From positions 2,520,451 to 2,544,450 of the forward strand of contig AP024683.1 in NCBI GenBank assembly GCA_025999455.1: 24,000 nt of DNA, in the 5' to 3' direction. The translations under genes were made by a program, and so were the position numbers. Below the pieces are notes generated by a model. The model was not told the DNA's origin, did no database searches, and saw nothing but the letters and a program-made list of their open reading frames with translations. The DNA comes from Geminicoccaceae bacterium. Lineage in GTDB: Bacteria > Pseudomonadota > Alphaproteobacteria > Geminicoccales > Geminicoccaceae. Of this stretch, positions 8,872-24,000 are shown in pieces; the stretch's first letter is position 1; every line of letters begins with the position of its first letter.

Positions 8872-9762
8872 TCAGCGCGGGCTTTCGCCCAACAGGATCC
8901 GCCGGAACGCCTGGGCCGGCGGCGGCAGCCGACGATGGGCGCGGTAGACGAGGTACCAGACCCGGAGGATCGGGAAGCCCTCGACCGGTAGGACGACGAG
9001 CCGACCGGTGGCAAGCTCGAGCTCCACCGTCTGGGCCGAGATCACGGCGAGACCGAGGCCGGCCTGGACGGCCTGTTTGACCGCCTCGTTCGTCTCGAAC
9101 ACGCAGGAGGTTTCGAAGCCGAGCCCGTGGGCGGCGAAGAGCCGCTCCATCGCCGCTCGGGTCCCGGAGCCTTGTTCGCGGACGACGAGCGGCTCCCGCA
9201 CGAGCCGGGCGAGCGGGATCGGCGCCCGGGCCAGGAGCGGATGGCCGGGCGGGGCGATGACGACGAGCGGGTTGTCCTTGAACCGCTGGGCCACGAGCTC
9301 GGCGTCCTCGGACGGCCGGCCGGTCACCGCGAGATCGGCCTCGCCGGCTTCGAGGGCGGCGAGCACGCTGTCGCGATTGGCCACCTGCAGTGCCACGGCG
9401 ATGCCGGGATATTGGCGGCGATAGGTGGCGAGGATGGGGGCGAGGAAATAGTTCGCGGTCGACACGACGGCGAGCCGCAAGACGCCGCGCTCGAGACCGC
9501 GCATCTGCCCGGCCGCCTCCTCGAGATCGGCCGTCGCCTGGACGATCCGGCGGGCATGCTCGGCGAGCTCGCGACCGGCCGGGGTCAAGACGATCCGCCG
9601 CCCGATCCGCTCGAGGAGCGGCAGGCCGAGGCTCTCCTCGAGATGGCGGACCGACATCGACACCGCCGGCTGCGTGAGATGCAGCTCCTGAGCGGCGCGG
9701 GTGATCGAGCCGTGCCGAGCGACCGCGTCGAGGACCCGGATCTGGCGGAAATCCGGCGGCAT
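8872..9762 (-). CDS. cbbR: LysR-family transcriptional regulator CbbR
   Basis: HTH 'IRVLDAVARHGSITRAAQELHLTQPAVSMSVRHLEESLGLPLLER' plus a LysR substrate-binding domain. Divergent from cbbL across 137 bp. Start taken as the internal ATG 9762 ('MPPDFRQIRVL'), which gives the usual position of the HTH. The ORF-track start at 9870 would extend into the AT-rich intergenic region. Confidence 0.85.
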   Translation of the reverse strand: MPPDFRQIRVLDAVARHGSITRAAQELHLTQPAVSMSVRHLEESLGLPLLERIGRRIVLTPAGRELAEHARRIVQATADLEEAAGQMRGLERGVLRLAVVSTANYFLAPILATYRRQYPGIAVALQVANRDSVLAALEAGEADLAVTGRPSEDAELVAQRFKDNPLVVIAPPGHPLLARAPIPLARLVREPLVVREQGSGTRAAMERLFAAHGLGFETSCVFETNEAVKQAVQAGLGLAVISAQTVELELATGRLVVLPVEGFPILRVWYLVYRAHRRLPPPAQAFRRILLGESPR

Positions 9763-9899
9763 GGACGATGGATAAACCGGCCTTATGTTAGCTGCAACGA
9801 ATTCTGATTGGTCCGGCGCCGCGCCGGGCGCTACCAGCTTCGCCGAGCGAAGTTCGACAAGAGCCCGCATGGGCGGGCCGGAGCGAGGCGGAGGGTGCG
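9763..9899. promoter_or_regulatory. cbbR-cbbL divergent control region with LysR-type T-N11-A box
   Basis: The only AT-enriched stretch in the window. ATAAACCGGCCTTAT (9772-9786) has inverted arms ATAA/TTAT and contains T-N11-A (TAAACCGGCCTTA). GGAGGG (9890-9895) precedes the cbbL GTG at 9900. No confident -35/-10 could be assigned. Confidence 0.45.
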
Positions 9900-11321
9900 G
9901 TGGCCCCCAAGGCGTACGAAGCTGGCGTCAAAGATTACGCGAAGACCTATTGGGTTCCCGACTACGTCCCGCTCGACACGGACATCCTCGCGATCTTCAA
10001 GGTCGTGCCGCAGCCGGGCGTGCCGCGCGAAGAAGCCGCGGCGGCGGTCTGCGCCGAATCGTCGACCGGTACGTGGACGACGGTGTGGACCGACCTCCTC
10101 ACCGATCTCGATTATTACAAGGGACGCGCCTACCGGATCGAGCCGGTGCCGGGCGATCCGAACGCGTTCTACGCCTACGTCGCCTATCCGATCGACCTCT
10201 TCGAAGAGGGCTCGGTCGTCAACGTCCTCACCTCGCTCGCCGGTAACGTCTTCGGCTTCAAGGCGGTGCGCAGCCTGCGACTCGAGGACGTGCGCTTCCC
10301 CCTCGCCTACGTGAAGACCTGCGGCGGGCCGCCCAACGGCATCCAGGTCGAGCGCGATCGGCTCAACAAATACGGCCGGCCGCTGCTCGGCTGCACGATC
10401 AAGCCGAAGCTCGGGCTTTCGGCCAAGAACTACGGACGCGCGGTCTACGAAGCGCTCCGCGGTGGTCTCGACTTCACCAAGGACGACGAGAACGTCAACA
10501 GCCAGCCCTTCATGCGCTGGCAGCACCGCTTCGAGTTCGTCATGGAAGCGGTCCGCAAGGCCGAAGAAGAGACGGGCGAGAAGAAGGGGCATTATCTCAA
10601 CGTCACCGCGCCCACGCCCGAGGAGATGTACAAGCGCGCCGAGTTCGCCAAGCAGCTCGGCTCGCGGATCATCATGCACGACTTCTTGACGGCGGGCTTC
10701 ACCGCACATACCGGGCTCGCCAATTGGTGCCGTGAAAACGGAATGTTGTTGCACGTGCACCGGGCGATGCACGCGGTGATCGACCGCAATCCCCTGCACG
10801 GCATCCATTTCCGCGTGCTCGCCAAATGCTTGCGCCTTTCCGGTGGTGACCATCTCCACTCCGGCACGGTCGTGGGCAAGCTCGAGGGCGACCGCGAGGC
10901 GACGCTCGGCTGGATCGACCTCATGCGCGAGCCCTACGTCCCCGAGAACCGCGCCCGCGGCATCTTCTTCGAGCAGGATTGGGGCTCGATGCCCGGGATG
11001 TTCCCGGTCGCCTCGGGCGGCATCCACGTCTGGCACGTCCCCGCGCTCGTCACGATCTTCGGCGACGACTCGATCCTCCAGTTCGGCGGCGGCACGCTCG
11101 GCCATCCTTGGGGCAACGCCGCCGGCGCGCACGCCAACCGCGTCGCGCTCGAGGCCTGCATCGAAGCCCGCAACCAGGGCCGCCAGGTCGAGCGCGAGGG
11201 CCGCGACATCCTCATGGAAGCCGCCAAGCACAGCCCGGAGCTCGCGATCGCGCTCGAGACCTGGAAGGAGGTCAAGTTCGAGTTCGACGTGGTCGACAAG
11301 CTCGACGTGCAGCGCGCCTGA
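9900..11321 (+). CDS. cbbL: RuBisCO large subunit, form IA (green-type, carboxysomal)
   Basis: 473 aa. '[19 protein letters not shown]' (carbamylated Lys), '[13 protein letters not shown]', '[10 protein letters not shown]', '[15 protein letters not shown]', '[11 protein letters not shown]', '[14 protein letters not shown]'. N-terminus '[17 protein letters not shown]' and C-terminus '[16 protein letters not shown]' match form IA. GTG start. Confidence 0.97.
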
Positions 11322-11360: not shown

Positions 11361-11699
11361 GTGCCGGAGATGCAAGCTTACGGGGCGGGTAAACAACGCT
11401 TCGAGACGTTCTCCTACCTGCCGCAGATGACGCCCGAGCGGATCACCAAGCAGGTGACGTACCTGATCAATCAAGGTTGGACACCGGCGATCGAACATTG
11501 TGAACCCGAGCGAGCGCATCTTACCTATTGGTACATGTGGAAATTGCCGATGTTCGGAGTTTATTCGGTCGAGAAAGTCCTCGCCGAAGCCGAAGCTTGC
11601 CACCGCGCCCATCCTGGCCATCTCGTGCGGCTCGTGGGCTACGACAATTTCAGCCAGTCGCAGGGTACCGCTTTCGTCGTCTATCGCGGCGGGCGTTGA
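11361..11699 (+). CDS. cbbS: RuBisCO small subunit (form IA)
   Basis: 112 aa. '[15 protein letters not shown]', 'GWTPAIEH', '[11 protein letters not shown]', 'VRLVGYDN', 'FVVYRG'. AGGAG lies 8 nt upstream of GTG 11361. Confidence 0.95.
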
Positions 11700-11727
11700 G
11701 ATCGTCGGTGCGGGGGAGGCCTTGGTG

Positions 11728-13686
11728 ATGAGTGCCGGAGCGATCGTGCCGACCGGCCGCGCGGCGTCGATGGAGCGTCGCCGGGCGCTCTCGCAAGGTA
11801 AACGCGCTCTTCCACCGCCTCGGGAGCGGGTGCGGACCGGCTTCCGCGAGGCCGCATTGCCGACCGTCGACGCCCGTCCCACCTCGCAACCCGTGAGCGC
11901 GCCCACGGTCTTGGCCGCGTCCGTGGCGACGGCGGTGTCGGTTCCGGTCGCGGTCGGCCGCCGGGCCTCGATGCTGCGCCGTCAGGCCCTCGTGCGCGGC
12001 AAGTCGGCGCTCGTTCCCGACGGCGCCGCGACCTCCTCGTCCGTACGCAACGGCTCCGCTCCCTCCCCCGATCGTGGGAAGATCGAAATCCTGCCGCCCG
12101 AGCGTGGCGAGGAGGAGAACTGCACCTCCTGCCGGGCCATCGCCAAAGCTCGCCGCGCCGAGCTCGCGCGCTTCGGGCGTGGCTCGGCCGAGCAATCGAA
12201 CGGGAGCAACGCCCATCGCCTGCGCTACGCTCCCAAGGTCGTGGCCGTGACGACCGAGGGCGAGCAGCGTGTCACGGGCATCCGGATCGGCCACGCGGCA
12301 CGCGTCACCGGCGTCGAGGCGGGGCTCGGTAAGCCGATCTCCGGTACACCCTACATCGGCCCGGACGAGGGGGCGACGACCCGCGGCACCGCACCCAAAG
12401 TCGGCGTGGCGCGCACCGAGGGGGGGCAGATCGTCTCCGGAACCCTCGTGCGCAGCCGGGTCGCGATCACGGGTGACGAAGCGGGTGCGCGGATCAAGAT
12501 CACGGGCGAAGTCGACCCGCGTCCGGACGACGACCTCACCCCGCGCGAGCGCGTGAGCGGGTTCGGACTGGCCCAGTTCCAGCGGCAAGCCGACCCGCAC
12601 GGTCACTCGGTGTTCGGGACCAATCTCGGCCGGTCGGCGCGGATCGTGGGCTCGCGATCGCGCGACCGCGAAAGGCCCGTCGAGGTGACGCTCGGTGGCC
12701 AGCCGGTGACGGGTACCGCGGTCGGGCGCAGCCCGAGGGTGACCGGTGACGAACCGGGCTCCTGTCGGATGCTGACCGGTACGCAATACCTCGCCCCCGC
12801 GCGCGCCGTCCTCGCCTGTGCGCCGGACGGGCAGGCCGATGGCGCGCTGTTGCCGCGACCGGACCCGGTGACCGGCGGCAAGGTGCGCGAGGCGCTCACC
12901 TGGCGGGGTCAGCGCGTCACCGGTCCGGAGTTCGAACAGGAAGAGCTCGTCACCGGGACCGAGCCCGGGACTTGCAGCCCCGTCACCGGCACCCCCTATC
13001 AGGGCCCGATCTCGGTCGCCCGTTGGTGCGCGCCGCGCACGGCCGGTGCGATCGCGCAGCGCCTCGTCCGCAACGGCCCCGTGCGGATCACGGGCGACGT
13101 GCCGCTGAGCGCACCCGAACGGGTGAGCGGGATCGAGCGCGGCGCCGACCGGTTCGTGAGCGGCACGCCTTATTACGAGGTCCCCGCTCTTCCCGCACCG
13201 AACGGTGAGACACCGGCCCTGCCCGCGCCGAGCGGCTTCTCGATCACGACACCGCACCGCCAGGCGATGCTCGAGGCCCCCGAACGAGCGGCGCGGCGAC
13301 CCAAGATCACGGGCTCCTTCGCGATCGGCGAGGGCAAGGTCACGGGCCATCTCGACTTCGGCTTCCGCCCGCGGCTCCTCGTTTCCGACAATCCCGGCCA
13401 CCGTGTCGGCGAGCGTCCGCGGATCACGGGCGAAGGCCGGACTCAGGGTTTCCGCATCACGGGTGACGCTTGGCGCGACGATCCGCGCGTGACCGGCACC
13501 GAGGGGACGAGTGCCGCGGTGCGCAATCCGAGCGAACGCGACGGCGAGCGCAAGACCTTCGCCCACAGCTCCGTCTTCAAGAGCAAAGGTAAGGACGAGC
13601 CGCCGCGCAAGCTCGTCACCGGTGTGATCGGCTGGACGCCGAAGTCCGCCGCGATCGTGACGCTCTCGGGCGGGGCGCAGGGATGA
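11728..13686 (+). CDS. csoS2: carboxysome scaffold protein CsoS2
   Basis: 652 aa from ATG 11728 (GGAGG at 11714-11718). Three basic N-terminal RuBisCO-binding-type motifs: 'GRAASMERRRALSQGKRAL', 'GRRASMLRRQALVRGKSAL', 'CRAIAKARRAELARFGRGS'. The middle and C-terminal regions are full of V(T/S)G triads ('RVTGIRIG', 'RVTGVEAG', 'ISGTPYIG', 'RVTGDEPGSC', 'PVTGTPYQG', 'ITGEGR', 'RITGDAW', 'RVTGTEG'). Lies immediately after cbbS. Confidence 0.9.
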   Translation: MSAGAIVPTGRAASMERRRALSQGKRALPPPRERVRTGFREAALPTVDARPTSQPVSAPTVLAASVATAVSVPVAVGRRASMLRRQALVRGKSALVPDGAATSSSVRNGSAPSPDRGKIEILPPERGEEENCTSCRAIAKARRAELARFGRGSAEQSNGSNAHRLRYAPKVVAVTTEGEQRVTGIRIGHAARVTGVEAGLGKPISGTPYIGPDEGATTRGTAPKVGVARTEGGQIVSGTLVRSRVAITGDEAGARIKITGEVDPRPDDDLTPRERVSGFGLAQFQRQADPHGHSVFGTNLGRSARIVGSRSRDRERPVEVTLGGQPVTGTAVGRSPRVTGDEPGSCRMLTGTQYLAPARAVLACAPDGQADGALLPRPDPVTGGKVREALTWRGQRVTGPEFEQEELVTGTEPGTCSPVTGTPYQGPISVARWCAPRTAGAIAQRLVRNGPVRITGDVPLSAPERVSGIERGADRFVSGTPYYEVPALPAPNGETPALPAPSGFSITTPHRQAMLEAPERAARRPKITGSFAIGEGKVTGHLDFGFRPRLLVSDNPGHRVGERPRITGEGRTQGFRITGDAWRDDPRVTGTEGTSAAVRNPSERDGERKTFAHSSVFKSKGKDEPPRKLVTGVIGWTPKSAAIVTLSGGAQG

Positions 13687-15242
13687 CGGCACCGATCCCG
13701 CTCGGACGCCCGGGCGCGTTCGGCCGGAGCCGGTTCCGGCCCGCTTCGCGGCCCGTCGCCCCGGTCGCTCCACGCATCCGGTCCGTCGCGAACGGGCGGG
13801 CGCCGCTGTTCGCCCCGAGCGGCCATCCGCTCGCCGAGCCCGCGATCAGCGCCGCCCTCGCCCGCCGCGCCGAGGAGATCGATCGAGCCTTCGCGGCGAT
13901 CGAGCCGGTGCTCGTCACGCTCGCCCCGCGCCAGTTCGAGCCGGGCTTCGCCGAGCGGGCCGCGGCCGAGATCGCGAGCGTGCTCGGGGTCGGCGTCGAG
14001 CCGGCGCGCCTCGAGGCCACGTGGAACCGGCCGCTCGACATGGTGGCCCTCCAGGCGAGCCTCGTCCTCCGCACGTTCGCCCGGCTCGTCGAACGCACCG
14101 CCGCGCGGCCGCCCGCGGTCGAGGAGGGGGAGCCCGTGGCGGAGGTCGTCCGCCGCTTCGGCTTCCACGGGGTCGACGTCTCGACCTGCGCCGACGGCAG
14201 GCTCGGCGGGCTGCTCGACCACGTGCTGCGGGTCCCGCCGGCGATCGTCGTCGCCCGCAAATCCTTCGCGGGGGCGATGTTCGACGTCGAGGAGGCGATC
14301 GCCCGGTTCGAGCGCGTCGAGCTCGGCCGCTGGCGCGAGGGTCGCCCGAACCCGGCGAGCGAGCCGACCCGCTATCTGAAGCTCGGCGTCTACCATTTCT
14401 CGAGTCTCGACCCGCAGCACGAGGGCTGCGCCGCGCACGGCAGCGACGAGCGGCGGGCCGCCGCCGCGCTGCTCGCTCGGCTCCACGACTTCGCCGAAGC
14501 CGTGGCGCGACGGCACGGTGAAGCTACGCGGCCGGCGATCTTGCTCGTGGGCGTCGACACCGACACCGATTCGATCCGGGTCCACGTGCCGGATCCGGCC
14601 GGGGAGATCGATCTCGACCGGTACCTGTCGAGCGCCGAGCTGCACGCCGCGACCCGCGAGCTTTCGCGCGAGGCGGCCAAGGAGGAGATCCGCCGGCGCG
14701 TGGCCGCGTCGATCGGGGTCGCCCCGGACGATCCCGCGACCGAGGGGATGCGCTGGTTCTGCGGGTATCTCTTGAAGAACAACATCGCCCAGGTCGAGGC
14801 GGTGCTCGCCCGCTTCGGCGGTCCCTATCCCGACCGCGGCCACGAGGAGCGGCTCGTCGTCGTGGGCGACCCGATCGACGACGTCCAGCTCCGCAACCTC
14901 GCCTTCCAGGCGCAGATGCGCTCGATCGAAGAGGGCGAAGGTGACCTCGCGGTCGGCATCCGGATCTTGGGCGAACGGCTGGCACCGGCCGGGCTCGCGG
15001 TGCCGATCCTGGTGCTGCGGACCTTCGAGGGCGGCCTGCCCGGAGCGGCCGATCGCGCCGCGGAACGGGCACAGCTCATGCGGCGGGCCGTCGAGCGACG
15101 CTTTTCCGGCACGGGCAGCGCGCCGCGGATCCTGGTCGAGGCCGCGATCCGCGCGGCCGAAGGCGGGTCGCTCCGCTTCCTGTCGCGTGACGTGGTCCGG
15201 GCGAACGGGTGCTCTTGCGCTCAGCGAGAGGGGATCGGATGA
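13683..15242 (+). CDS. csoS3: carboxysome shell carbonic anhydrase CsoSCA (CsoS3)
   Basis: 519 aa. ATG overlaps the csoS2 stop (ATGA 13683-13686). Zinc/catalytic motifs 'STCADGRLGG' (CxDxR; Cys codon 14187-14189) and 'YHFSSLDPQHEGCAAHGSD'. Canonical position after csoS2. Confidence 0.9.
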   Translation: MTAPIPLGRPGAFGRSRFRPASRPVAPVAPRIRSVANGRAPLFAPSGHPLAEPAISAALARRAEEIDRAFAAIEPVLVTLAPRQFEPGFAERAAAEIASVLGVGVEPARLEATWNRPLDMVALQASLVLRTFARLVERTAARPPAVEEGEPVAEVVRRFGFHGVDVSTCADGRLGGLLDHVLRVPPAIVVARKSFAGAMFDVEEAIARFERVELGRWREGRPNPASEPTRYLKLGVYHFSSLDPQHEGCAAHGSDERRAAAALLARLHDFAEAVARRHGEATRPAILLVGVDTDTDSIRVHVPDPAGEIDLDRYLSSAELHAATRELSREAAKEEIRRRVAASIGVAPDDPATEGMRWFCGYLLKNNIAQVEAVLARFGGPYPDRGHEERLVVVGDPIDDVQLRNLAFQAQMRSIEEGEGDLAVGIRILGERLAPAGLAVPILVLRTFEGGLPGAADRAAERAQLMRRAVERRFSGTGSAPRILVEAAIRAAEGGSLRFLSRDVVRANGCSCAQREGIG

Positions 15243-15523
15243 AGATCTTCCAAGTCGAGCGGACGTTGGTCGCGACCGCGCGCATCAGCCAACTCGAGAA
15301 CCGGCGGCTCCTCGTCGTCAAGGAGCGCGGCGGCGGTCGCCAGGTCGCGGTCGACCCGGTCGGCTGCAAGCCGGGTGACTGGGTCATCGCGGTGGGCAGT
15401 TCGGCGGCCAAGGACGCCGCCGGTCACAAGGACTATCCGAGCGATCTGACGATCGTCGGCATCATCGACTACTGGGAAGAAACACCGCCGACGACGCCGG
15501 CCCGGGTCAAGGAGTTCGCCTGA
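15239..15523 (+). CDS. csoS4A: carboxysome vertex pentamer protein CsoS4A (EutN/CcmL family)
   Basis: 94 aa, 'MKIFQVERTLVATARI...VAVDPVGCKPGDWVIAVGSSAA...LTIVGIIDYW'. ATGA overlap with the csoS3 stop (15239-15242). Confidence 0.9.
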   Translation: MKIFQVERTLVATARISQLENRRLLVVKERGGGRQVAVDPVGCKPGDWVIAVGSSAAKDAAGHKDYPSDLTIVGIIDYWEETPPTTPARVKEFA

Positions 15524-15783
15524 TGCACATCCACCGGGTCGTCCGCGATCTCGTGACCACGAAGCGTCTCGGCACCTTGCAGGCCAAGAAGCTCAAGGTG
15601 CTGGTCGACGCCAAGGGCGAGTACGACGTCGCGGTCGATCCGATCGGCTGCAAGCCCGGCGATTACGTCATCAGCATCGGCTATTCGGCGGCGCGCATCG
15701 CCGCGGGCGATCCGCGCATCACGACCGATCTCACGATCGGCGGCATCATCGACCACTGGAGCGAGGAAGAGTGGCGAAGGTGA
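15523..15783 (+). CDS. csoS4B: carboxysome vertex pentamer protein CsoS4B (EutN/CcmL family)
   Basis: 86 aa, 'VAVDPIGCKPGDYVISIGYSAA...LTIGGIIDHW'. TGATG overlap with csoS4A (15521-15525). Confidence 0.9.
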   Translation: MHIHRVVRDLVTTKRLGTLQAKKLKVLVDAKGEYDVAVDPIGCKPGDYVISIGYSAARIAAGDPRITTDLTIGGIIDHWSEEEWRR

Positions 15784-15848
15784 CCGATCCGCCGGCGCCC
15801 GCGGGGCCGCCGGCCGAAATCCAGCGGAGCGAGGAAAAGGAGCGAACC

Positions 15849-16148
15849 ATGGCCAGCGAGAGAACCGGCATCGCCTTGGGGATGATCGAGACGCGCGGGC
15901 TCGTCCCGGCAATCGAGGCGGCCGATGCCATGACCAAGGCTTCGGAAGTGCGGCTCATCTGCCGCCAGTTCGTGGGCGGCGGCTACGTCACGGTGATGGT
16001 CCGCGGTGAGACGGGTGCGGTCAACGCCGCGGTCCGGGCCGGGGCGGACGCTTGCGAGCGGGTCGGTGACGGTCTCGCCGCCGCGCACATCATCGCCCGC
16101 CCGCACGCCGAGGTCGAGCAGATCCTTCCGACCACGCCCACGCTTTGA
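15849..16148 (+). CDS. csoS1: carboxysome major shell hexamer protein CsoS1 (BMC-H), copy 1
   Basis: 99 aa from ATG 15849 (AAGGAG 6 nt upstream). 'GIALGMIETRGLVPAIEAADAMTKASEVRLI...GGGYVTVMVRGETGAVNAAVRAGA' is the BMC domain. The ORF-track start at 15771 adds a non-conserved Pro/Ala leader that copy 2 lacks. Confidence 0.92.
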   Translation: MASERTGIALGMIETRGLVPAIEAADAMTKASEVRLICRQFVGGGYVTVMVRGETGAVNAAVRAGADACERVGDGLAAAHIIARPHAEVEQILPTTPTL

Positions 16149-16190
16149 GGAGGGTCGGTCGCATCGTTCGCGAACGGGGGAAAGCTCTCG

Positions 16191-16535
16191 ATGGCTACGA
16201 GCGAAAGGAACGGTATCGCTTTGGGGATGATCGAGACGCGCGGGCTCGTCCCGGCGATCGAGGCGGCCGATGCCATGACCAAGGCTTCGGAGGTGCGGCT
16301 CATCTGCCGCCAGTTCGTGGGCGGCGGCTACGTCACGGTGATGGTCCGCGGTGAGACGGGTGCGGTCAACGCCGCGGTCCGGGCCGGGGCGGACGCCTGC
16401 GAGCGGGTCGGCGACGGCCTCGCTGCGGCGCACATCATCGCCCGCCCGCACCCCGAGGTCGAGCAGATCCTGCCCAAGAGCCCGACGCTCGACGGCGGCG
16501 GTCGCGACAGCGAGGTGACCGGCATCCGCAGCTGA
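16191..16535 (+). CDS. csoS1: carboxysome major shell hexamer protein CsoS1 (BMC-H), copy 2, with about 15-aa C-terminal tail
   Basis: 114 aa. BMC domain is identical to copy 1 except 'HPEV' in place of 'HAEV'. Extra tail 'LDGGGRDSEVTGIRS'. Confidence 0.92.
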   Translation: MATSERNGIALGMIETRGLVPAIEAADAMTKASEVRLICRQFVGGGYVTVMVRGETGAVNAAVRAGADACERVGDGLAAAHIIARPHPEVEQILPKSPTLDGGGRDSEVTGIRS

Positions 16536-16539
16536 GACG

Positions 16540-16569
16540 GGAGCGGTCGGCCTCCGGGCCGACCGCTCC
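16540..16569 (+). promoter_or_regulatory. intercistronic GC-rich stem-loop after the shell genes
   Basis: Perfect 13-bp stem GGAGCGGTCGGCC (16540-16552) / GGCCGACCGCTCC (16557-16569) with loop TCCG. It starts 5 nt after the csoS1 stop. No U-tract follows. The next gene's GGAGG (16579-16583) and ATG (16590) follow. Confidence 0.6.
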
Positions 16570-16589
16570 GCGCGACGGGGAGGGGCCCC

Positions 16590-16859
16590 ATGGCGACGAG
16601 TGACGAGCCCGAGGGCTGGGAACGGATCGGCCGCAACCGATCCCTCTTCCGGCGGTTCGAGTTCAGCGCCTACAGCGAGACGCGGCTCTTCTTGGAGCGG
16701 CTCGCGGCCCTCTCGGAGCGGACCGGCATCCATCCCGATCTGAGCTTCGGGCCGAAGCACGCCAACGTCACCGTGCACGGCGCTCGAGGCGAGCCGGGTG
16801 CCGAGGAGGTGGCCTTCGCTCGCGAGGCCACCCGGCTAGCCCGGCCCGACGAGCCGTGA
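16590..16859 (+). CDS. pterin-4a-carbinolamine dehydratase-like protein (acRAF-type alpha-carboxysome RuBisCO assembly factor)
   Basis: 89 aa PCD/DCoH fold pattern 'FEFSAYSETRLFLERLAALSERTGIHPDLSF...ANVTVH'. The PCD catalytic 'HHP' reads 'IHP' and the later 'THD' is lost, as expected for the non-catalytic carboxysome-associated PCD-like proteins. Location directly after csoS1 is typical. Confidence 0.78.
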   Translation: MATSDEPEGWERIGRNRSLFRRFEFSAYSETRLFLERLAALSERTGIHPDLSFGPKHANVTVHGARGEPGAEEVAFAREATRLARPDEP

Positions 16860-17758
16860 ACCGCGTCGCACCGCTCGAGGTCGCCGTCGCGGTCGTCCGT
16901 GACGGCGCCGGGCGGGTGCTCGTGGCGGAGCGGACACCGCGACAGATCGCGGGCGGCTATTGGGAGTTGCCCGGCGGCAAGATCGAGGCCGGGGAGACGC
17001 CGGAGCAGGCCGCGCGCCGTGAACTCTTCGAGGAAGCGGGGTTGCGCGCCGAAATCCTGCGTCCTTGGATCTCCTACGACTACGCGTTCCCCACGCGGTC
17101 CGTCCGGCTCCACATTTTCTCGGTCGAGCGCTATTCGGGCACGCCCGAAGGGCGCGAGGGCAACCGGCTCGCCTGGGTCGATCCGGCGCGGCCCGCGGTC
17201 GGCCCGATCCTCCCCTCCAATCGACGCGCCTTCGCCTTGTTGGCGCTGCCGTCGGTCTTCGTGCGGGTGTGTCCCGGCGACGCCGCGCTCGCCGCGGTCC
17301 GCGGTTTCGAGCCCGGCGAGGGTCTCCTCCTCGGTCGGAGCGGTAGTCCCGGCCAACGTGTGCAAACCGCCCGGCGGCTCGCGGCCGGTGGGGCTCGGGT
17401 CCTCCTCGAGGGTACGCCGCTCGAGGCGATCCAAGCGGGTGCGAGCGGGCTCGTGAGCCCCTGGCCGGAGTGGCACCGCTTCGCCGGCCGGCCGCCGGTC
17501 GATCTCTGGGCGGTTCGGTGCGCCGGGCCGGCCGAGCTCGACCTGGCCGCCCGGCTCGACGCCGACTTCGGGATCCTTCCCTCGGCCGCGGCCCGCGACT
17601 TGGCGCCACCGGGGGCTCCCTTGCCCGTCTTCCTCGAAGGTACGGATCTGCGATCGGTCGAGCGCGCCCGCGCCCTCGGCGTGTTCGGTGTGGTCCTCGA
17701 CGGAACCGCTCCGGCGACCGCCCGGAGCGTCGGCGATTGGCAGGAATCCAGGCGATGA
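16856..17758 (+). CDS. Nudix hydrolase (MutT-like) fused to a TenI/ThiE-like C-terminal domain
   Basis: 300 aa. Intact Nudix box 'GGKIEAGETPEQAARRELFEEAGL' (Gx5Ex7REUxEExGU). The C-terminal 170 aa or so follows the layout of the MutT-TMP-synthase-like fusions of proteobacteria (linker 'LPSVFVRVCPG', 'DADFGILPSAA', 'PVFLEGT'). GTG 16856 overlaps the acRAF stop (GTGA), and the stop overlaps the SulP ATG (ATGA). Confidence 0.8.
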   Translation: MNRVAPLEVAVAVVRDGAGRVLVAERTPRQIAGGYWELPGGKIEAGETPEQAARRELFEEAGLRAEILRPWISYDYAFPTRSVRLHIFSVERYSGTPEGREGNRLAWVDPARPAVGPILPSNRRAFALLALPSVFVRVCPGDAALAAVRGFEPGEGLLLGRSGSPGQRVQTARRLAAGGARVLLEGTPLEAIQAGASGLVSPWPEWHRFAGRPPVDLWAVRCAGPAELDLAARLDADFGILPSAAARDLAPPGAPLPVFLEGTDLRSVERARALGVFGVVLDGTAPATARSVGDWQESRR

Positions 17759-20034
17759 GCGACGGAACCGTCACGGCCGTCCGCCGCACCGCGCTCGAGC
17801 TGCCCGCGAGCGGCCTCGCCGGGCTCAAACATTGGCGCTACGATCTCGTGGCCGGGCTGCAGGTGGCGCTCCTTTGGACGCCCTTCTCGCTCGGTGTCGC
17901 CCTCGCTTCCGGTGCGCCCGCGGTCGCCGGACTCATTTCGGCGATCGTCGCCGGGCTGTTGTTCCCGTTCCTGGGCGGCTCGCACGTCACGGTCAGCGGG
18001 CCGGCCGCCGCCCTCGCACCCATGGTGCTCTGGGGTATCCTGACCTTGGGTCACGGCGACCTCGCCGCCGGTTACCCGCTCGTGCTCGTGGCGATCGTGC
18101 TCACCGGTGTGCTGCAGATCGTCTTGAGCCTGTTCCGCGCCGGCCAGTATGCGGCGCTCCTGCCGACGACGGTGGTCGAAGGGATGCTGGCGGCGATCGG
18201 AATCATCATCATCGTCCGCCAGATCCCACCGCTTCTGGGCGCCGAATCGGTCGCCGCCAAATCGGTCCTCGTCGCGATCCTCGCGCTCCCCCAGCAGCTC
18301 GCGACCGCGAAGCCCGTGATCGCCCTCGTCGGCATCACGAGCCTCGCGCTCATGTTCTTGTTGAATCTGCGCTCGAGCGGCTTCTGGAAGCGGGTGCCGG
18401 CGGCCATCATCGTCACCGTCTTCGGTATCGCCGTGGGCTTCCTGCTCGATCTCGACGCGAGCCTGCGGATCCGGATGCCCGAGAGCTTCCTCGACGCGCT
18501 GCATCTGCCGGACTTCGCCGGTATGCTCGCCCGCCCCGACCTCTGGGGCTCGCTCTTGATCGTGGTCGTGACCTTCACGTTGATCGACGGGGTGGAATCG
18601 GTCGCGAGCGTCAAGGCCGTCGACCGGCTCGATCCGTGGCGGCGCGTCTCCGACCCGAACAAGACCTTGCGCGCCATGGGCGTGTGCAACCTCTGCTCGG
18701 GCATGCTCGGCGGGCTCACGATCATCCCGAACGCCGTGCCCTCGCGGGCCAACATCGACGCCGGCGCCCGCACGCTCTGGTCGAACCTCTTCAGCGGGCT
18801 CTTCCTTTTGCTGTTCACCCTCGCCCTGCCCTGGTTGCTCGCCCGCATCCCGCTCGCCTCGATCGCCGGCGTGCTCGTCTACATAGGTTGGCGGCTGTGC
18901 GAGCCCGCCCTCTTCGCCCGGATGCGCGCGCTGGGGCTCGATCGGTTCATCGTCTTCGTCGGCACCGTGGTCGCGATCTTGATGACCGACCTCCTGGTCG
19001 GGATGCTCGTCGGCATCGCGATCGAGCTCCTCCTGCTCGTCTATCTCTTGATGCCGTCCTTCCGCTACGTGCTCACCGGCCGGCTCGAGCTCGGCACGGC
19101 GATGGGCCTCCTCGCCCGCAACTTCGCCGGCCTCTTCAAGAGCCCGATCATCAAGGCGCGGGTCGAGGGTGACGGCCCGGATCGCCAGCACGTGCTGACG
19201 ATGGGCTCGCTCGTCGGCTTCAACCTCCTGCCCTTCGAGAAGACGGTGAAGGCGATCCCGCCGCGCGAGCCGCTCACGCTCCGTTTCACCGAGTCGGCGC
19301 GGATCGTCGACCACACGGCGGTCGAGTTCCTCCAGCATCTCGAAGAGGAATCCGCGACCGCCGATCGCCGGTTCACGATCGAGGGGCTCGAGAGCTTCTT
19401 CCGCTTCTCGTCGCACCCGGCCGCGACCCGCATGCAGGACACCCGGATCGGCCAAGTGCGTGCCGAATGCGACGCGCGCGCCCGCGAGATGGCCGAACTC
19501 GCCGCCCGCCTCGGCCTCGCCTTCGAGGGCGAGACACGCGCCACGATCAACCGCTGGGATTTCATCTATCTGCGCCGCGGCGAGCAGCGGCAGGACACCA
19601 ACGTGCTCACCGGCCCCTGGGGCGGCGGCCGGATCCGCATCGTCGATTACGGCCACACGGCCGCGCCCGACTATCACGTGGTCCACCGCCACACGCTCTT
19701 GATCTTCGAGCCGGCCGAGGGTGCCGCGCGCGAGCCCGATCTCGTGATCACGCCGGGCCACTACATGGAGCGCTACATGACGCTCCTCGAGGAACGGCCG
19801 GTCGCCGCTCTGCCCCCGCCGCACCGGCTCTACCTCGCCCCGGGGCTCCCGGCCGAGGCGGTCGCGATCCCGCCCGCCTGGCGGAGTGCGCTCGCGGAGC
19901 TCGGTCCGCTCTACCTCGAGCGGCGGCGCGGCTCGCTCCTCGTCTTCGCCCCGTTCCGGGCGCTCGAGCCGGTCGAGCGGATCGAAGCCCTCGCCCGCGC
20001 CTTCCGCGCCGAGCGCGAGGCCGCCGCGGCCTGA
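17755..20034 (+). CDS. SulP/SLC26-family anion transporter with STAS-like domain and about 200-aa uncharacterised C-terminal extension (candidate bicarbonate transporter)
   Basis: 759 aa from ATG 17755. SulP core: 'DLVAGLQVALLWTPFSLGVALASGAP', 'GGSHVTVSGPAAALAPMV', 'LIDGVESVASVKAVD', 'NLCSGMLGGLTIIPNAVPSRANIDAGART'. STAS-like segment at about residues 465-560 ('LTLRFTESARIVDHTAVEFLQHL'). Residues from about 563 to 759 (19441-20031) match nothing I recognise. The longer 854-aa ORF start at 17470 is out-of-frame overlap with the Nudix gene. Confidence 0.85.
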   Translation: MSDGTVTAVRRTALELPASGLAGLKHWRYDLVAGLQVALLWTPFSLGVALASGAPAVAGLISAIVAGLLFPFLGGSHVTVSGPAAALAPMVLWGILTLGHGDLAAGYPLVLVAIVLTGVLQIVLSLFRAGQYAALLPTTVVEGMLAAIGIIIIVRQIPPLLGAESVAAKSVLVAILALPQQLATAKPVIALVGITSLALMFLLNLRSSGFWKRVPAAIIVTVFGIAVGFLLDLDASLRIRMPESFLDALHLPDFAGMLARPDLWGSLLIVVVTFTLIDGVESVASVKAVDRLDPWRRVSDPNKTLRAMGVCNLCSGMLGGLTIIPNAVPSRANIDAGARTLWSNLFSGLFLLLFTLALPWLLARIPLASIAGVLVYIGWRLCEPALFARMRALGLDRFIVFVGTVVAILMTDLLVGMLVGIAIELLLLVYLLMPSFRYVLTGRLELGTAMGLLARNFAGLFKSPIIKARVEGDGPDRQHVLTMGSLVGFNLLPFEKTVKAIPPREPLTLRFTESARIVDHTAVEFLQHLEEESATADRRFTIEGLESFFRFSSHPAATRMQDTRIGQVRAECDARAREMAELAARLGLAFEGETRATINRWDFIYLRRGEQRQDTNVLTGPWGGGRIRIVDYGHTAAPDYHVVHRHTLLIFEPAEGAAREPDLVITPGHYMERYMTLLEERPVAALPPPHRLYLAPGLPAEAVAIPPAWRSALAELGPLYLERRRGSLLVFAPFRALEPVERIEALARAFRAEREAAAA

Positions 20035-20089
20035 GGGCGCGCTCGCGCGGCGCGGAGATCGACGAGACGATCGATCGGCGGTCGACGCC

Positions 20090-20743
20090 TCAGTCCTTCG
20101 GCCGGAGCGCGGCGATCGCCTGCGCGTAGGGCGGACGGCCGAAGACCGCGGAGCCGGCCACGAGCACGCTCGCGCCCGCCTCGATCACGAGCGGGGCCGT
20201 CTCGGGGGTGATCCCGCCGTCGACTTCGATCCGGATCGGCCGATCACCGATCATGGCCCGGACCCGACGGATCTTGTCGAGCTGAGAGGCCAGGAACTTC
20301 TGGCCGCCGAAGCCCGGGTTCACCGTCATGACGAGCACGAGGTCGATCTGATCGAGGACGTAGGCGACGGCAGACTCCGGGGTCGCCGGGTTCAGCGACA
20401 CCCCGGCCGCCTTGCCGAGACCGCGGATCACCTGGAGCGTGCGATCCAGATGTTTACACGCCTCGGCGTGGACGATGATCCGATCGGCGCCGGCTTTGGC
20501 GAAGGCCTCGAGATAGGGATCCGCCGGCTCGATCATCAAATGGGTGTCGAAGCATTTCTTCGACCAGGGCCGGATCGCCTTCACGACGTCCGGCCCGAAG
20601 GTGATGTTGGGCACGAAATGGCCGTCCATCACGTCGAGATGGATCCAATCCGCCCCGGCCTCGTCGACCGCGCGGACCTCCTCGCCGAGCCGGGCGAAGT
20701 CGGCGGAGAGGATGGAGGGTGCGATCAGGACCTCGCGTCTCAC
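20090..20743 (-). CDS. rpe: ribulose-phosphate 3-epimerase
   Basis: 217 aa. '[17 protein letters not shown]', '[16 protein letters not shown]', '[12 protein letters not shown]', 'IEVDGGI'. GTG start 20743 overlaps the cbbX stop (GTGA). Confidence 0.93.
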
Positions 20744-21636
20744 GCGGCGCGCTCCCCGGGGCTGGCGGCGAGGACCCGGCTCGCCAGGATCTCTTCGGGT
20801 CCGATCGTCTGCGGATCCTCGACGGTCAAGGCCTTGCCGTGGCTCTCGAAGAGCCGGACGGCTCGGCGCAGCCGCGCCCGGTCGAGGGCGTTGCGGACCG
20901 ACCGGGCGTTGGCGAAGTGCGGTTGCCGCATCCGCGCGTCGAGATAGCGCGCGAAGGCGGCCCGTCCCTCCGGGCTGAAGCGGTAATTCTGTTCGGCGAG
21001 CATGAGCTCGGCGATCGCCAGGAGCTCGTCCTTGGTGTAGTCGGGAAACTCGACGTGGTGGGCGATGCGCGAGCGCATCCCGGGATCGGCCCGGAAGAAC
21101 CGCTCCATCCGGACGGGATGCCCGGCCAAGATCACGACGAGATCGTCGCGCTTCGTCTCCATCACCTGGAGCAGGAACTCGATCGCCTCTTTGCCGTGGC
21201 CGGGCTCGTCCTCCGGTCGGTCGAGGTGACAGGCCTGGTCGACGAACAGCACCCCGCCCATCGCTTTTTCGAGCAGCTCCTTGGTCTTGGGTGCCGTGTG
21301 GCCGCCAGGCTGGCCGACCAGATCCTCGCAGGCGACCGAGACGAGGCGGTTCGTTCGGACGTAGCCGAGCCGGTGCAGGATCTCGGCCATCCGCTGGGCG
21401 ACCGTCGTCTTGCCGGTGCCAGGATTACCGATGAAGGCCATGTGCAAGCTCGGCGGGCGGCTCGTGAGGCCGAGCTCGCGCCGCAGCTTGTCGACCAGGA
21501 GAAGGGCCGCGATCTCGCGGATCCGCCGCTTGACGGGGGCGAGCCCGACGAGCTGGCGATCGAGCTCGTCGAGCACCTCCCCCACGCCCGAGGAGCGGAA
21601 CGCCGCTTCGAGGTCGACCGTCGCGATCGAGGTCAC
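20740..21636 (-). CDS. cbbX: CbbX-type AAA+ protein (red-type RuBisCO activase family) with atypical Walker B and pore loop
   Basis: 298 aa from GTG 21636 (GAGGGG upstream). '[28 protein letters not shown]', Walker A '[11 protein letters not shown]', '[11 protein letters not shown]', '[10 protein letters not shown]', '[13 protein letters not shown]', '[20 protein letters not shown]'. Walker B reads '[10 protein letters not shown]' rather than the family 'LFIDEAYYL'. The upstream 104 codons of the 402-aa ORF have no CbbX-like sequence. Confidence 0.88.
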
Positions 21637-21806
21637 CGTCGGATTCCCCTCTCGAAAACGGCCCGTGCGCCGCTCGCTCGGGCTTCGGGCGCCGCAGCAC
21701 CACCCGGCCGGCCGGATCGATACCGTCGCCCCGTGGCGCCTCGCCGGAGTTGCCACCCGGGCGCTCGGCGACCGATCCGCCCTCGACCCCTTCCCCGATC
21801 GACGGC

Positions 21807-22892
21807 TCAGGCGGCCATGGCGCGGACCGGGGTGATCTTCGGGTCGAGCTCGCCCGAGGCGTAGCGCTTGGCCATGGCCGAGAGCGGCAAGGGCTTGATC
21901 TTCGGGGCTTGACCGGCCGTGCCGAACTCCTCGAAACGCTGTGCGCACAGCTTCGTGAGCGCCGCCATCGCGGGCTTCAAGAAGTTGCGCGGGTCGAACT
22001 CGCTCTTCTTCTGCATCGCCACGCGGCGGAACTCGGCGGTCATGGCGATCCGGCAGTCGGTGTCGATGTTCACTTTCCGCACGCCGTGCTTGATGCCGAG
22101 CTGGATCTCCTCGACCGGAACCCCCCAGGTCTGGGGCATCTCGCCGCCGAACTCGTTGAAGAGATCCTGGAGCTCCTGCGGCACCGAGCTCGAGCCGTGC
22201 ATGACGAGATGCGTGTTCGGCAGCCGCTCGTGGATCGCCTTGACGACGTCCATGGCGAGGATGTCGCCCGTGGGCTTGCGCTTGAACTTGTAGGCGCCGT
22301 GACTCGTGCCGATCGCGACCGCGAGCGCGTCCACACCGGTGGCGGCCACGAACTCGCGGGCCTGGTCGGGGTCCGTCAGAAGCTGCTTCTTGTCGAGCTT
22401 GCCGGTCGCCCCGTGGCCGTCCTCGGCCTCACCCTCGCCGGTCTCGAGGGAACCCAGACAACCGAGCTCGCCCTCGACCGAGACGCCCACCCAATGCGCC
22501 ATTTCGACGACCCGGCGGGTCACGGCGACGTTGTACTCGTAGGAGGCCGGCGTCTTGCCGTCCTCCTCGAGGCTGCCGTCCATCATCACGCTCGTGAAGC
22601 CGTGCTGAATGGCGGAAAGGCAGGTCGCGGGCTTGTCGCCGTGGTCGAGATGCAGGCAGACGGGGATGTCGGGCCAGGTCTCGACGGCCGCCTTCACCAT
22701 CGCCGCCAAGATCGTGTCGCCGGCATAGGCGCGCGCCCCGCGCGAGGCTTGCAGGATCACGGGCGAGGCGGTCTTGGCGGCCGCCTCCATGATCCCCCGC
22801 AGTTGCTCCATGTTGTTGATGTTGAAGGCCGGGACCCCGTAGCCGTGCTCGGCGGCGTGGTCCAGGAGCTGGCGCAGCGTGATGAAGGCCAT
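21807..22892 (-). CDS. fba: class II fructose-1,6-bisphosphate aldolase (Calvin-cycle type, CbbA)
   Basis: 361 aa from ATG 22892 (GGAGG 6 nt upstream). '[30 protein letters not shown]', 'PVCLHLDHG', '[10 protein letters not shown]', '[10 protein letters not shown]'. The longer 596-aa ORF upstream part is spurious overlap with tkt. Confidence 0.93.
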
Positions 22893-22909
22893 GACGATCC
22901 TCCGAATGA

Positions 22910-24000
22910 TCAGGCGGCCGGAGCGAGCCCGAGCTTGCGCTCGGCCAGGCTCACGAGCGCGTCGACGGTGATGCCGTAGGCGCGGAAGAGGTCGGCGGCG
23001 GGCGCCGAGGCACCGAAGCTGCGCACGGCGACGACGTCCTCCTCGCTGCCGACGTAGCGGGCCCAGCCGAAAGGCGAGGCCGCCTCGATCGCGATCCGCG
23101 GCGCCTCCCCCAGCACCGTGGCGCGGTAGGCGGGCGGCTGGGCGTCGAACAGCTCGAAGCAGGGCAAGGAGACGACCGCGGTCGGCACGCCGCGCGCTTC
23201 GAGCCGCGCCCGCGCCTCGAGCGCCAGATGGACCTCCGAGCCGGTCGCGAGGATCGTGAGCGCACGCGCGCCACCGGTGGCCTCGGCCAAGACGTAGCCG
23301 CCCTTGGCGCAGAGGTTCCCCTCGCTCGGCTCGGTCCGCACGGCCGGCACGTTCTGGCGCGTGAGCGCGAGGATCGAGGGGGTCTTGCGCTGCGAAAGGG
23401 CCAGTTCCCAGCACTCCGCCGTCTCGACCGCATCGGCCGGGCGGAAGACCAAGAGGTTCGGGATCGCCCGGAGCGAGGCCAGATGCTCGACGGGCTGATG
23501 CGTCGGCCCGTCCTCTCCGAGGCCGATGCTGTCGTGGGTCATGACGTAGACGACCCGCAGCCCCATGAGTGCCGAGAGCCGGATGCTGTTGCGGCAATAG
23601 TCCGAGAAGACGAGGAAGGTGCCGCCGTAGGGCACGAGCCCCTCGTGCAGCGCGATGCCGTTCATGATCGCGGCCATCGCGTGCTCGCGCACGCCGTAAT
23701 GGACGTAGCGGCCGCCGAATTCCCCCGGGCGGATCGGCTTCGTGGCCTTGGTGATCGTGTTGTTCGAATGGGTGAGGTCGGCCGAGCCGCCGACGAGCTC
23801 GGGCACCGCTTCCGTCAAGGCCTCGAGGGCCGCCTCGGACGCCTTGCGGGTGGCCATCGTGGGCTTGCTCGCGAAGAGCTTGGCCTTGTGGGCGGCGATC
23901 GCGGCTTCGACCTCGGCCCCGATCTCGCCCGCGATCGCCTTGACGAACGCCGCCCGGACCGCGGCCGGTGCCGCCTCGAGCCGCGCCTTCCAGGCGGCCC
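22910..24000 (-). CDS. tkt: transketolase (C-terminal about 360 aa; 5' end lies beyond the window)
   Basis: '[31 protein letters not shown]', '[21 protein letters not shown]', '[18 protein letters not shown]', '[30 protein letters not shown]'. The frame stays open and transketolase-like upstream of the ORF-track Met (23857) to position 24000. The stop lies 17 nt before the fba start. Confidence 0.9.

Follow-up and report, generated by a model that had tools for sequence, protein, structure and literature searches.

CbbX is the best-understood RuBisCO activase. It acts by drawing the C-terminal tail of the RuBisCO large subunit (RbcL) into its pore, and deletions of that tail make RuBisCO non-activatable (PMC5437159, PMC5385338). 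The Y114A replacement leaves the ATPase working and abolishes the activase function, while E138Q in CmN, the nuclear-encoded isoform of C. merolae, abolishes both activities (PMC5437159 Table 1). The pocket for ribulose-1,5-bisphosphate (RuBP) sits in the alpha-helical subdomain (PMC5437159, PMC5385338), and cbbX is reviewed as always accompanying the genes of form IC RuBisCO (PMC5437159). The gene considered here lies in a stretch of 24,000 nucleotides (nt) from a Geminicoccaceae bacterium (GenBank assembly GCA_025999455.1, contig AP024683.1, positions 2,520,451 to 2,544,450), the whole of which was analysed and is called the window below. Its product works like no described CbbX. It is best explained, with a probability of roughly 0.8, as the product of an orphaned cbbX orthologue: a non-threading pseudo-activase that is still under selection.

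A literature search found no paper on a natural CbbX that is pore-less or carries Gln at the catalytic Walker-B position; the nearest published variant is a mild Tyr-to-Phe pore change in Nannochloropsis. The window protein and Rhodobacter sphaeroides CbbX (RsCbbX; PDB 3SYL, 3SYK and 3ZUH) have the same family, fold, Walker A motif, Walker-B Asp, ‘RSRIAHH’ and lid motifs, and their genes hold the same position in the cbb operon. In contrast to RsCbbX, however, the window gene has no adjoining form IC cbbLS genes, and its product has Pro for Tyr114, Gly for Ile115 and Gln for Glu138. The tyrosines of ‘DEAYYLY’ and ‘AGY’ and the pore-loop-2 segment are also replaced, and the N-terminus and start are new. 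The nearest natural analogy is CmP, which forms a hetero-hexamer with CmN in C. merolae and is likewise a natural CbbX whose own hydrolysis is dispensable, since it withstands E138Q and its role is chiefly structural (PMC5437159). CmP, however, needs its pore-loop Tyr and has an active partner and a red-type RuBisCO to serve, whereas the window CbbX has lost the pore loop and is not known to have either. Engineered Walker-B ‘substrate-trap’ mutants carry the same one-nucleotide change, GAG to CAG, at the catalytic Glu, but the change in the window is natural, occurs in two of the four lineages described below, and is coupled with loss of the substrate-holding pore loops. The activase expected beside a form IA or carboxysomal RuBisCO is the MoxR-type CbbQ/CbbO, which as a rule accompanies form IA and form II enzymes (PMC5437159) and whose AAA+ clade is unrelated to CbbX.

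The gene is the following open reading frame (ORF):

20740..21636, minus strand: cbbX-derived ORF encoding the orphaned, pore-less CbbX orthologue (298 amino acids, GTG start)

A first-pass annotation, made from the sequence alone, had assigned this ORF to the CbbX family, and database searches agree. TIGR02880 (CbbX) is the top family (E 1.4e-132, 441.2 bits), SpoVK follows far behind at 236 bits, and the RsCbbX structures 3SYL/3ZUH match residues 3–291 at E 4e-111. The score of 441.2 bits nevertheless misses the curated TIGR02880 equivalog cut-off of 459.25 bits. An AlphaFold2 (AF2) model has the standard AAA+ layout (predicted local distance difference test score 83, predicted template modelling score 0.72), and identity to the canonical CbbX proteins of close relatives is 79–87%. 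The same protein occurs, letter for letter, in one NCBI metagenome-assembled genome (MAG; GCA_037478955.1, Geminicoccaceae bacterium) and in three independent Logan assemblies from the Sequence Read Archive (SRA), and the pore-loop change recurs in three further lineages. Base-call error, against which the annotation had advised resequencing, is therefore excluded as the cause. The gene is CbbX by descent, and it departs from the family in its pore loop, its Walker-B Glu, its linkage to form IC genes and its curated score.

The motifs that are kept and lost are listed here; adding 4 to a window residue number gives the RsCbbX number.

21406..21429, minus strand: Walker A, G70-N-P-G-T-G-K76-T77 (GNPGTGKT), intact
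21301..21309, minus strand: pore loop 1, P110-G111-G112 replacing Y-I-G (site of RsCbbX Tyr114/Ile115)
21235..21240, minus strand: Walker B, D133-Q134 (GAC CAG), with Gln at the canonical Glu (site of RsCbbX Glu138)
21190..21231, minus strand: residues 136–149, the short helix after Walker B and the pore-loop-2 segment, replacing canonical YYLYRPENERDYGQ
21112..21120, minus strand: H173-P174-V175 right after strand beta4, replacing canonical Y-A-D, with the ‘AGY’ tyrosine lost
21067..21075, minus strand: R188-S189-R190 of ‘RSRIAHH’, retained (R190 is Arg in 93% of family-wide domains)

Codon 110 is CCT (Pro; 21309–21307), equivalent to Tyr114 of RsCbbX, and codon 134 is CAG (Gln; 21237–21235), equivalent to Glu138; both read as the annotation had claimed. 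The two columns, invariant in the family according to the annotation, were examined in an alignment of the 124 closest homologues of the window CbbX. Outside a five-sequence cluster, all 120 carry Y110, I111, E134, Y136, Y137, Y147 and Y173, and with them the YIG and DE motifs. K76 of Walker A is unchanged across all 125 aligned close-homologue domains, and the window protein also retains the ‘GHTAPKTKE’ motif. The retained R188-S189-R190 lies in the arginine-finger region. Family-wide column statistics were drawn from 550 AAA+ domains of 150 diverse family representatives, mostly giant multi-AAA proteins. In this sample, position 134 is Glu in 90% of domains, position 136 is Tyr in 87% and position 173 is Tyr in 89%, while position 110 is more variable (Tyr 63%, Phe 9%, His 7%). 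The eight most frequent residues listed for each column include no Pro at 110 and no Gln at 134.

The changes extend well beyond the two residues that the annotation had singled out. There are 29 clade-specific stem replacements, and 22 of them lie within residues 87–196 (binomial p 3e-5), a stretch that, on the AF2 model, starts where beta2 ends and takes in pore loop 1, Walker B, pore loop 2 and the post-beta4 loop. Seventeen of the 29 fall at columns invariant in the 120 canonical CbbX proteins, against 53% of all columns that are invariant. At codon positions 1–2, stem replacements run from AT to GC in 22 cases and from GC to AT in 4, a bias expected from the drift of released sites in a genome of 70% GC. 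The lid (residues 197–290) is nearly unchanged and constrained at the background level, as judged over the whole segment.

The surrounding operon bears the mark of the event that orphaned the gene:

20090..20743, minus strand: rpe, ribulose-phosphate 3-epimerase (TIGR01163, 293 bits)
20740..20743, minus strand: cbbX stop and rpe start, overlapping as GTGA in an architecture of translational coupling
21637..21806, minus strand: filler of 170 nt in place of cbbL, cbbS and the first ~9 cbbX codons
21807..22892, minus strand: class II fructose-bisphosphate aldolase (cbbA/fba), just upstream of the scar (TIGR01521, 618 bits)
22910..24000, minus strand: transketolase (cbbT), of which the window end leaves the 3' part

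The operon is laid out as cbbR / cbbF-prk-tkt-fba-cbbX-rpe, with no RuBisCO genes from fba to cbbX. Synteny confirms the suggestion of the annotation that a red-type RuBisCO partner has been lost. The arrangement in syntenic relatives (L007–L012, L017–L019, L040–L043) is fba-cbbL-cbbS-cbbX-rpe, in which CbbL is form IC (484 amino acids), CbbS has 141 amino acids and CbbX has 303 and carries YIG and DE. In the window and in L001–L006, L013–L016 and L023 it is fba-filler-cbbX-rpe. The window gene is orthologous by operon slot, being syntenic with the genes of L007–L012 and L017–L019 and flanked like them by fba and rpe. Linkage to form IC is gone, as cbbLS is missing and the sole RuBisCO of the window is form IA. 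Homology with the relatives ends two bases past the fba stop and restarts at canonical cbbX codon ~10, and the span that the filler replaces is ~2 kb in the relatives.

The filler has no similarity to the relatives' cbbLS region, and no source for it was detectable; its versions differ among lineages by indels of 1–8 nt, and that of L023 is ~85 nt shorter. It contributes a new GTG start, the first four cbbX codons and a new Shine-Dalgarno sequence, GAGAGGGGA, at 21653–21645, and no terminator-like site was found in it on the coding strand. At the other end of the gene, the Shine-Dalgarno sequence of rpe, GGGGAG, is located within the cbbX 3' end, and canonical relatives and L023 have the same 4-nt cbbX/rpe overlap in their gene calls.

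Two further loci (L022:8801–12346 and L046:4801–8346) carry a canonical cbbX, with YIG and DE, directly after fba, and cbbLS is absent within 10 kb either side. Separation from cbbLS is not enough by itself for erosion. Together with the scar-bearing clade, these canonical loci are exceptions to the rule that cbbX accompanies form IC genes.

The scar is carried by four lineages. That of the window comprises L001–L004, P0121 and P0122, all with a protein identical to the window CbbX. The second is P0001/P0123 (L005, L006, L014–L016), the third is P0124 (L013), and the fourth is L023, a much more diverged MAG found in a scan of GTDB representatives. A metagenome scan yielded no additional pore-less members. 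Homology extends across all four lineages in the filler's 3' part and the GTG-ACC start, and eight derived residues are identical in them (Q60R, S67A, T69I, K123E, I132V, Y139D, Q182R and G269A), which points to a single origin of the deletion. The pore-loop Tyr-Ile, Tyr136/137/139, Tyr147 and Tyr173 have likewise been lost in all four, with replacements that sometimes differ.

The Walker-B Gln, which the annotation had treated as a defining change, is restricted to the window and L013 lineages; Glu is kept in L005 and L023. At synonymous sites, the window groups with L013 in codons 10–57 and with L005 from codon 85 on, and these conflicting groupings indicate recombination or homoplasy as the source of the Gln134 distribution. 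The Glu-to-Gln change thus came late, in particular lineages, to a motor that had already been disabled. A mosaic history is also seen in the synonymous differences between the window and L005, of which 13 of 15 lie in codons 5–57 and none in codons 197–298.

The most eroded pore-less cbbX is that of L023 (L023:9989–10891, Geminicoccaceae bacterium BQF270218_bin_130), with 103 replacements. Its Walker A reads GNPGNGKT (Thr to Asn), its pore loop 1 reads ‘GPADGYG’ (A-D-G), and its pore-loop-2 segment is two codons shorter, in frame. Nevertheless, the ORF is open, the 4-nt overlap with rpe is present and the lid is strongly conserved.

Selection on the orphaned gene was estimated with a maximum-likelihood (ML) branch model (GY94-F3x4), the comparison with relatives for which the annotation had called. 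The ratio of nonsynonymous to synonymous rates (dN/dS, omega) is 0.02 on canonical branches and 0.09–0.16 within the clade: the stems have 0.13–0.16, the window clade's crown 0.09 and L023 0.12. A common omega with the background is rejected for all three (p 5e-5 to 5e-7). The flanking fba and rpe, taken together, have no rise in omega on the same branches (0.017 and 0.013 vs 0.027, not significant). Relaxation is thus about 5-fold and specific to cbbX.

Relaxed constraint is not, however, absence of constraint. An omega of 1 is rejected in the crown (2dlnL 72, p 2e-17), in L023 (2dlnL 87.5, p 8e-21) and in the central region of the crown (p 0.0015). Nonsynonymous changes in the crown number 23, vs 33 synonymous, while ~77% would be nonsynonymous under neutrality (p 8e-9). 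Codons 5–86 and 197–298 are constrained like canonical cbbX (0.062 vs 0.031, p 0.13). Walker A, the arginine-finger region, the N-domain and the alpha-helical lid are under purifying selection. The annotation had offered two alternatives, a decaying relic or a repurposed pseudo-enzyme still co-translated with rpe. The relaxation agrees with the first in part, but neutral decay is rejected, and the second fits better.

The filler provides an internal yardstick for these estimates. Among the three crown lineages, it has diverged by 0.10–0.29 substitutions per site and its ~175 nt contain four or more indels, while cbbX of the same lineages has a dN of 0.016–0.030 and no indels in 894 nt. The filler consequently evolves ~10 times faster than the nonsynonymous sites of cbbX. 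Its mean distance of 0.21 is closer to the ML neutral distances than to the synonymous divergence (dS) given by the NG86 method, so the omega scale of the ML model is the better calibrated. Within the filler, the window and L013 do not differ over the last 55 nt, where the Shine-Dalgarno sequence lies, but have 16 mismatches in the part upstream, which suggests that translation initiation of cbbX is conserved. A neutral pseudogene would be expected to have a dN/dS of about 1 and frameshifts or stops; the gene has an omega of about 0.1 and is free of frameshifts in all four lineages. The intactness of the ORF, set against the ~0.8 disruptions per kb in relatives' pseudogenes, adds a little to this, and the indel rate of the filler is the better yardstick.

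The very long ML stem branch of the central segment raised the possibility that this segment is foreign or mosaic. This was rejected, as central dS is higher in all pairs and the stem synonymous excess is not significant (Fisher p 0.16).

The RuBisCO that remains in the window belongs to a different module, encoded convergently with the cbbX-bearing operon:

8872..9870, minus strand: LysR-type regulator, divergent from the carboxysome operon
9900..11321, plus strand: form IA (carboxysomal) RuBisCO large subunit, ending ‘...DKLDVQRA’, without the red-type tail
11370..20034, plus strand: remainder of the alpha-carboxysome operon, intact (cbbS, csoS2, csoSCA, csoS4A/B, two csoS1, Pterin_4a-like, NUDIX, SulP)

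The window RbcL matches the carboxysomal form IA structure 1SVD at 939.9 bits vs 623.9 bits for the form IC structure 1BXN, while the RbcL of the relatives' operon is best matched by the form IC structures 1BXN and 5NV3. A comparison of C-termini found the extended tail ‘...DTPDFVPTPTVL’ only in form IC RbcL. Neither cbbQ nor cbbO was found in the window or in the 20-kb loci.

The two modules have mirror-image fates. The carboxysome locus is intact in the window, L005 and L023, from which form IC cbbLS has been deleted. L007 and L011, which retain form IC cbbLS together with canonical cbbX, have a broken carboxysome locus alongside (L007:11600–19300, L011:5400–14700). There, the form IA cbbL is in three frames and SulP in two or three; L011 has CsoS2 in two and L007 lacks shell genes, and NUDIX is split across frames in the decayed loci. 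L009 has no carboxysome locus. These mirror-image states imply an ancestor with both modules, of which descendants retained one or the other.

Several observations concern the carboxysome operon itself, and a literature search found no paper on Geminicoccaceae carboxysomes. Between the window and L005, the carboxysomal carbonic anhydrase encoded by csoSCA (13683–15242) differs at 48 of 519 residues (dS 0.22, omega 0.25), and the products of its carboxysome neighbours at 0–11. The Pterin_4a-like gene and a 300-residue NUDIX hydrolase gene (16590–17758) have stop/start overlaps with each other and with SulP, and NUDIX is an unusual passenger for carboxysome loci. The SulP-type transporter (17755–20034) has a C-terminal region of ~285 residues (19177–20031) without a Pfam match. 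Divergence from L001, an NCBI MAG contig, begins inside this gene: the two sequences are 100% identical from the window end to ~19723. A Logan contig, L002 (SRR34265296), compared over window positions 16367–23673, is identical across the ~19723 boundary. This pattern suggests that strains have recombined or that the source assembly is another one.

The history that these data favour begins with a ~2-kb deletion that removed form IC cbbL-cbbS and the first ~9 cbbX codons from an fba-cbbLS-cbbX-rpe operon. The lineage would now depend on the form IA RuBisCO of the neighbouring alpha-carboxysome, whose RbcL lacks a tail for CbbX to thread. With activase function no longer needed, pore loop 1 went from YIG to PGG and the block after Walker B, with pore loop 2, was altered. 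The family-wide tyrosines 136 and 173 disappeared, and Gln replaced the Walker-B Glu in the window and one sister lineage. The pore-less CbbX presumably can no longer thread or reactivate RuBisCO, and the version in the window lineage is predicted to bind ATP but probably cannot hydrolyse it. Adaptation to form IA RuBisCO was also considered and appears unlikely, since the pore aromatic is gone, the form IA tail is short and no omega exceeds 1.

Retention of the gene under selection, despite the loss of its motor residues, suggests either a non-motor role or a need for continued translation. Ribosomes may have to cross the ORF to reach rpe, in which case an abundant product would have to stay folded and harmless. 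Alternatively or additionally, a residual non-motor role, in nucleotide or RuBP binding or in assembly, may have been kept. These two possibilities, a functionless but translated protein and a residual non-motor role, are rated about equally.

Several points weigh against the reading of the gene as a selected pseudo-activase. The loss of activity is extrapolated from mutants of other CbbX proteins, and, beyond the window and the loci surveyed, the genome may encode a form IC RuBisCO or a further, canonical cbbX. Omega is also method-dependent, with NG86 giving 0.21–0.27 in the crown and 0.4–0.55 on paths to L023. By the same method, verified pseudogenes of the relatives have path omegas of 0.17–0.34, and cbbX between the window and L011 has 0.24–0.27. 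Given this similarity, the stem values by themselves are compatible with a fully neutral episode. Absence of stop codons was dropped as evidence of selection, since in this GC-rich gene the simulated probability of meeting no stop is 0.39 (window lineage) and 0.16 (L023). Finally, the ML tests assume a single tree, which recombination inside cbbX contradicts, and the lineages number only four.

Two of the rival explanations bear on why the gene is kept. The protein may be a repurposed pseudo-AAA+, with ATP binding and the RuBP-binding lid kept, that serves the physiology of the Calvin cycle or the carboxysome as a switch, sensor or scaffold without threading. This is plausible, though short of probable. 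Purifying selection is domain-specific and has persisted in the four lineages, along a branch as long as ~4.4 neutral substitutions per codon. Walker A, the Walker-B Asp, R190 and the lid block are retained, the alpha-helical subdomain holds the RuBP pocket (PMC5437159, PMC5385338), and the translation start region has been rebuilt and conserved. The argument is drawn from sequence, however, and hydrolysis is inconsistent, with Glu in two lineages and Gln in two, so that no single mechanism is obvious; the clade is moreover tiny and rare in public data. The protein may instead be functionless, the ORF being kept only for read-through to the essential Calvin-cycle gene rpe via GTGA, with an abundant product that need only be soluble and non-toxic. 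That reading is held to be almost as plausible, and likewise short of probable. In keeping with it, the 4-nt overlap occurs in all lineages, the rpe Shine-Dalgarno sequence GGGGAG lies within cbbX, and cbbX has no frameshifts beside an indel-rich filler. Replacements have also struck invariant columns at near the chance rate (17 of 29 in the stem and 10 of 22 in the crown, vs 53% of columns), and those at invariant columns in the crown are mostly conservative. Yet coupling alone would give an omega near 1, and about 0.1 is observed. Constraint on the N-domain and lid matches that in working CbbX, and both are conserved even in L023 after 103 replacements, a degree of constraint that probably exceeds the level usual for misfolding avoidance.

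The remaining explanations are much less likely. That the gene is a passive hetero-oligomer subunit, with a second canonical CbbX and a form IC RuBisCO encoded elsewhere, seems improbable. CmP offers a precedent, as it is mostly structural and tolerates E138Q (PMC5437159), and L022 and L046 have canonical cbbX by fba without cbbLS within 10 kb. However, Y114A in either CmN or CmP inactivates the red-algal activase, so a pore-less partner would poison the hexamer, and the reciprocal decay of form IC and carboxysome loci indicates a switch of RuBisCO form and not coexistence; no second cbbX copy was seen, though a scan of the whole genome was not made. A neutrally decaying pseudogene, still undisrupted by luck, is a little harder to credit. 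It would account for the ~5-fold relaxation and the AT-to-GC drift typical of released sites, stop codons seldom arise at this composition, and verified pseudogenes in the relatives have a similar path omega. Against this stand the rejection of omega = 1 in both crown and L023 and an adjoining filler that evolves ~10 times faster and gathers indels, while cbbX is free of frameshifts in four lineages. Least credible of all, to the point of being negligible, is a sequencing or assembly artefact: the source is indeed a MAG, but the identical protein comes from one NCBI MAG and three SRA assemblies, and its changes are common to diverged JGI, Logan and GTDB sequences.

The pore-less clade amounts to a natural knock-out series, in which the substrate genes were deleted, the pore loops and catalytic residues were erased and the remainder was conserved through long divergence. 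It thereby separates the parts of CbbX that serve activation from those that serve something else. Beyond the loss of the partner, the added result is that the relic has been selectively retained in four lineages. The sister lineages are the mirror image, and close relatives thus neatly divide two alternative CO2-fixation modules among themselves. Should the gene be retained for the coupling to rpe alone, the locus would show clearly how operon architecture can preserve a dead gene. Whether CbbX has an activity besides threading can be tested with four natural variants. A second activity that requires neither threading nor hydrolysis, and that would use the N-domain, nucleotide binding and the RuBP lid as an RuBP- or ATP-responsive switch or scaffold, is a tentative possibility. 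If it is real, the window CbbX would represent a natural AAA+ pseudo-enzyme, long kept in Geminicoccaceae that swapped form IC RuBisCO for an alpha-carboxysome.

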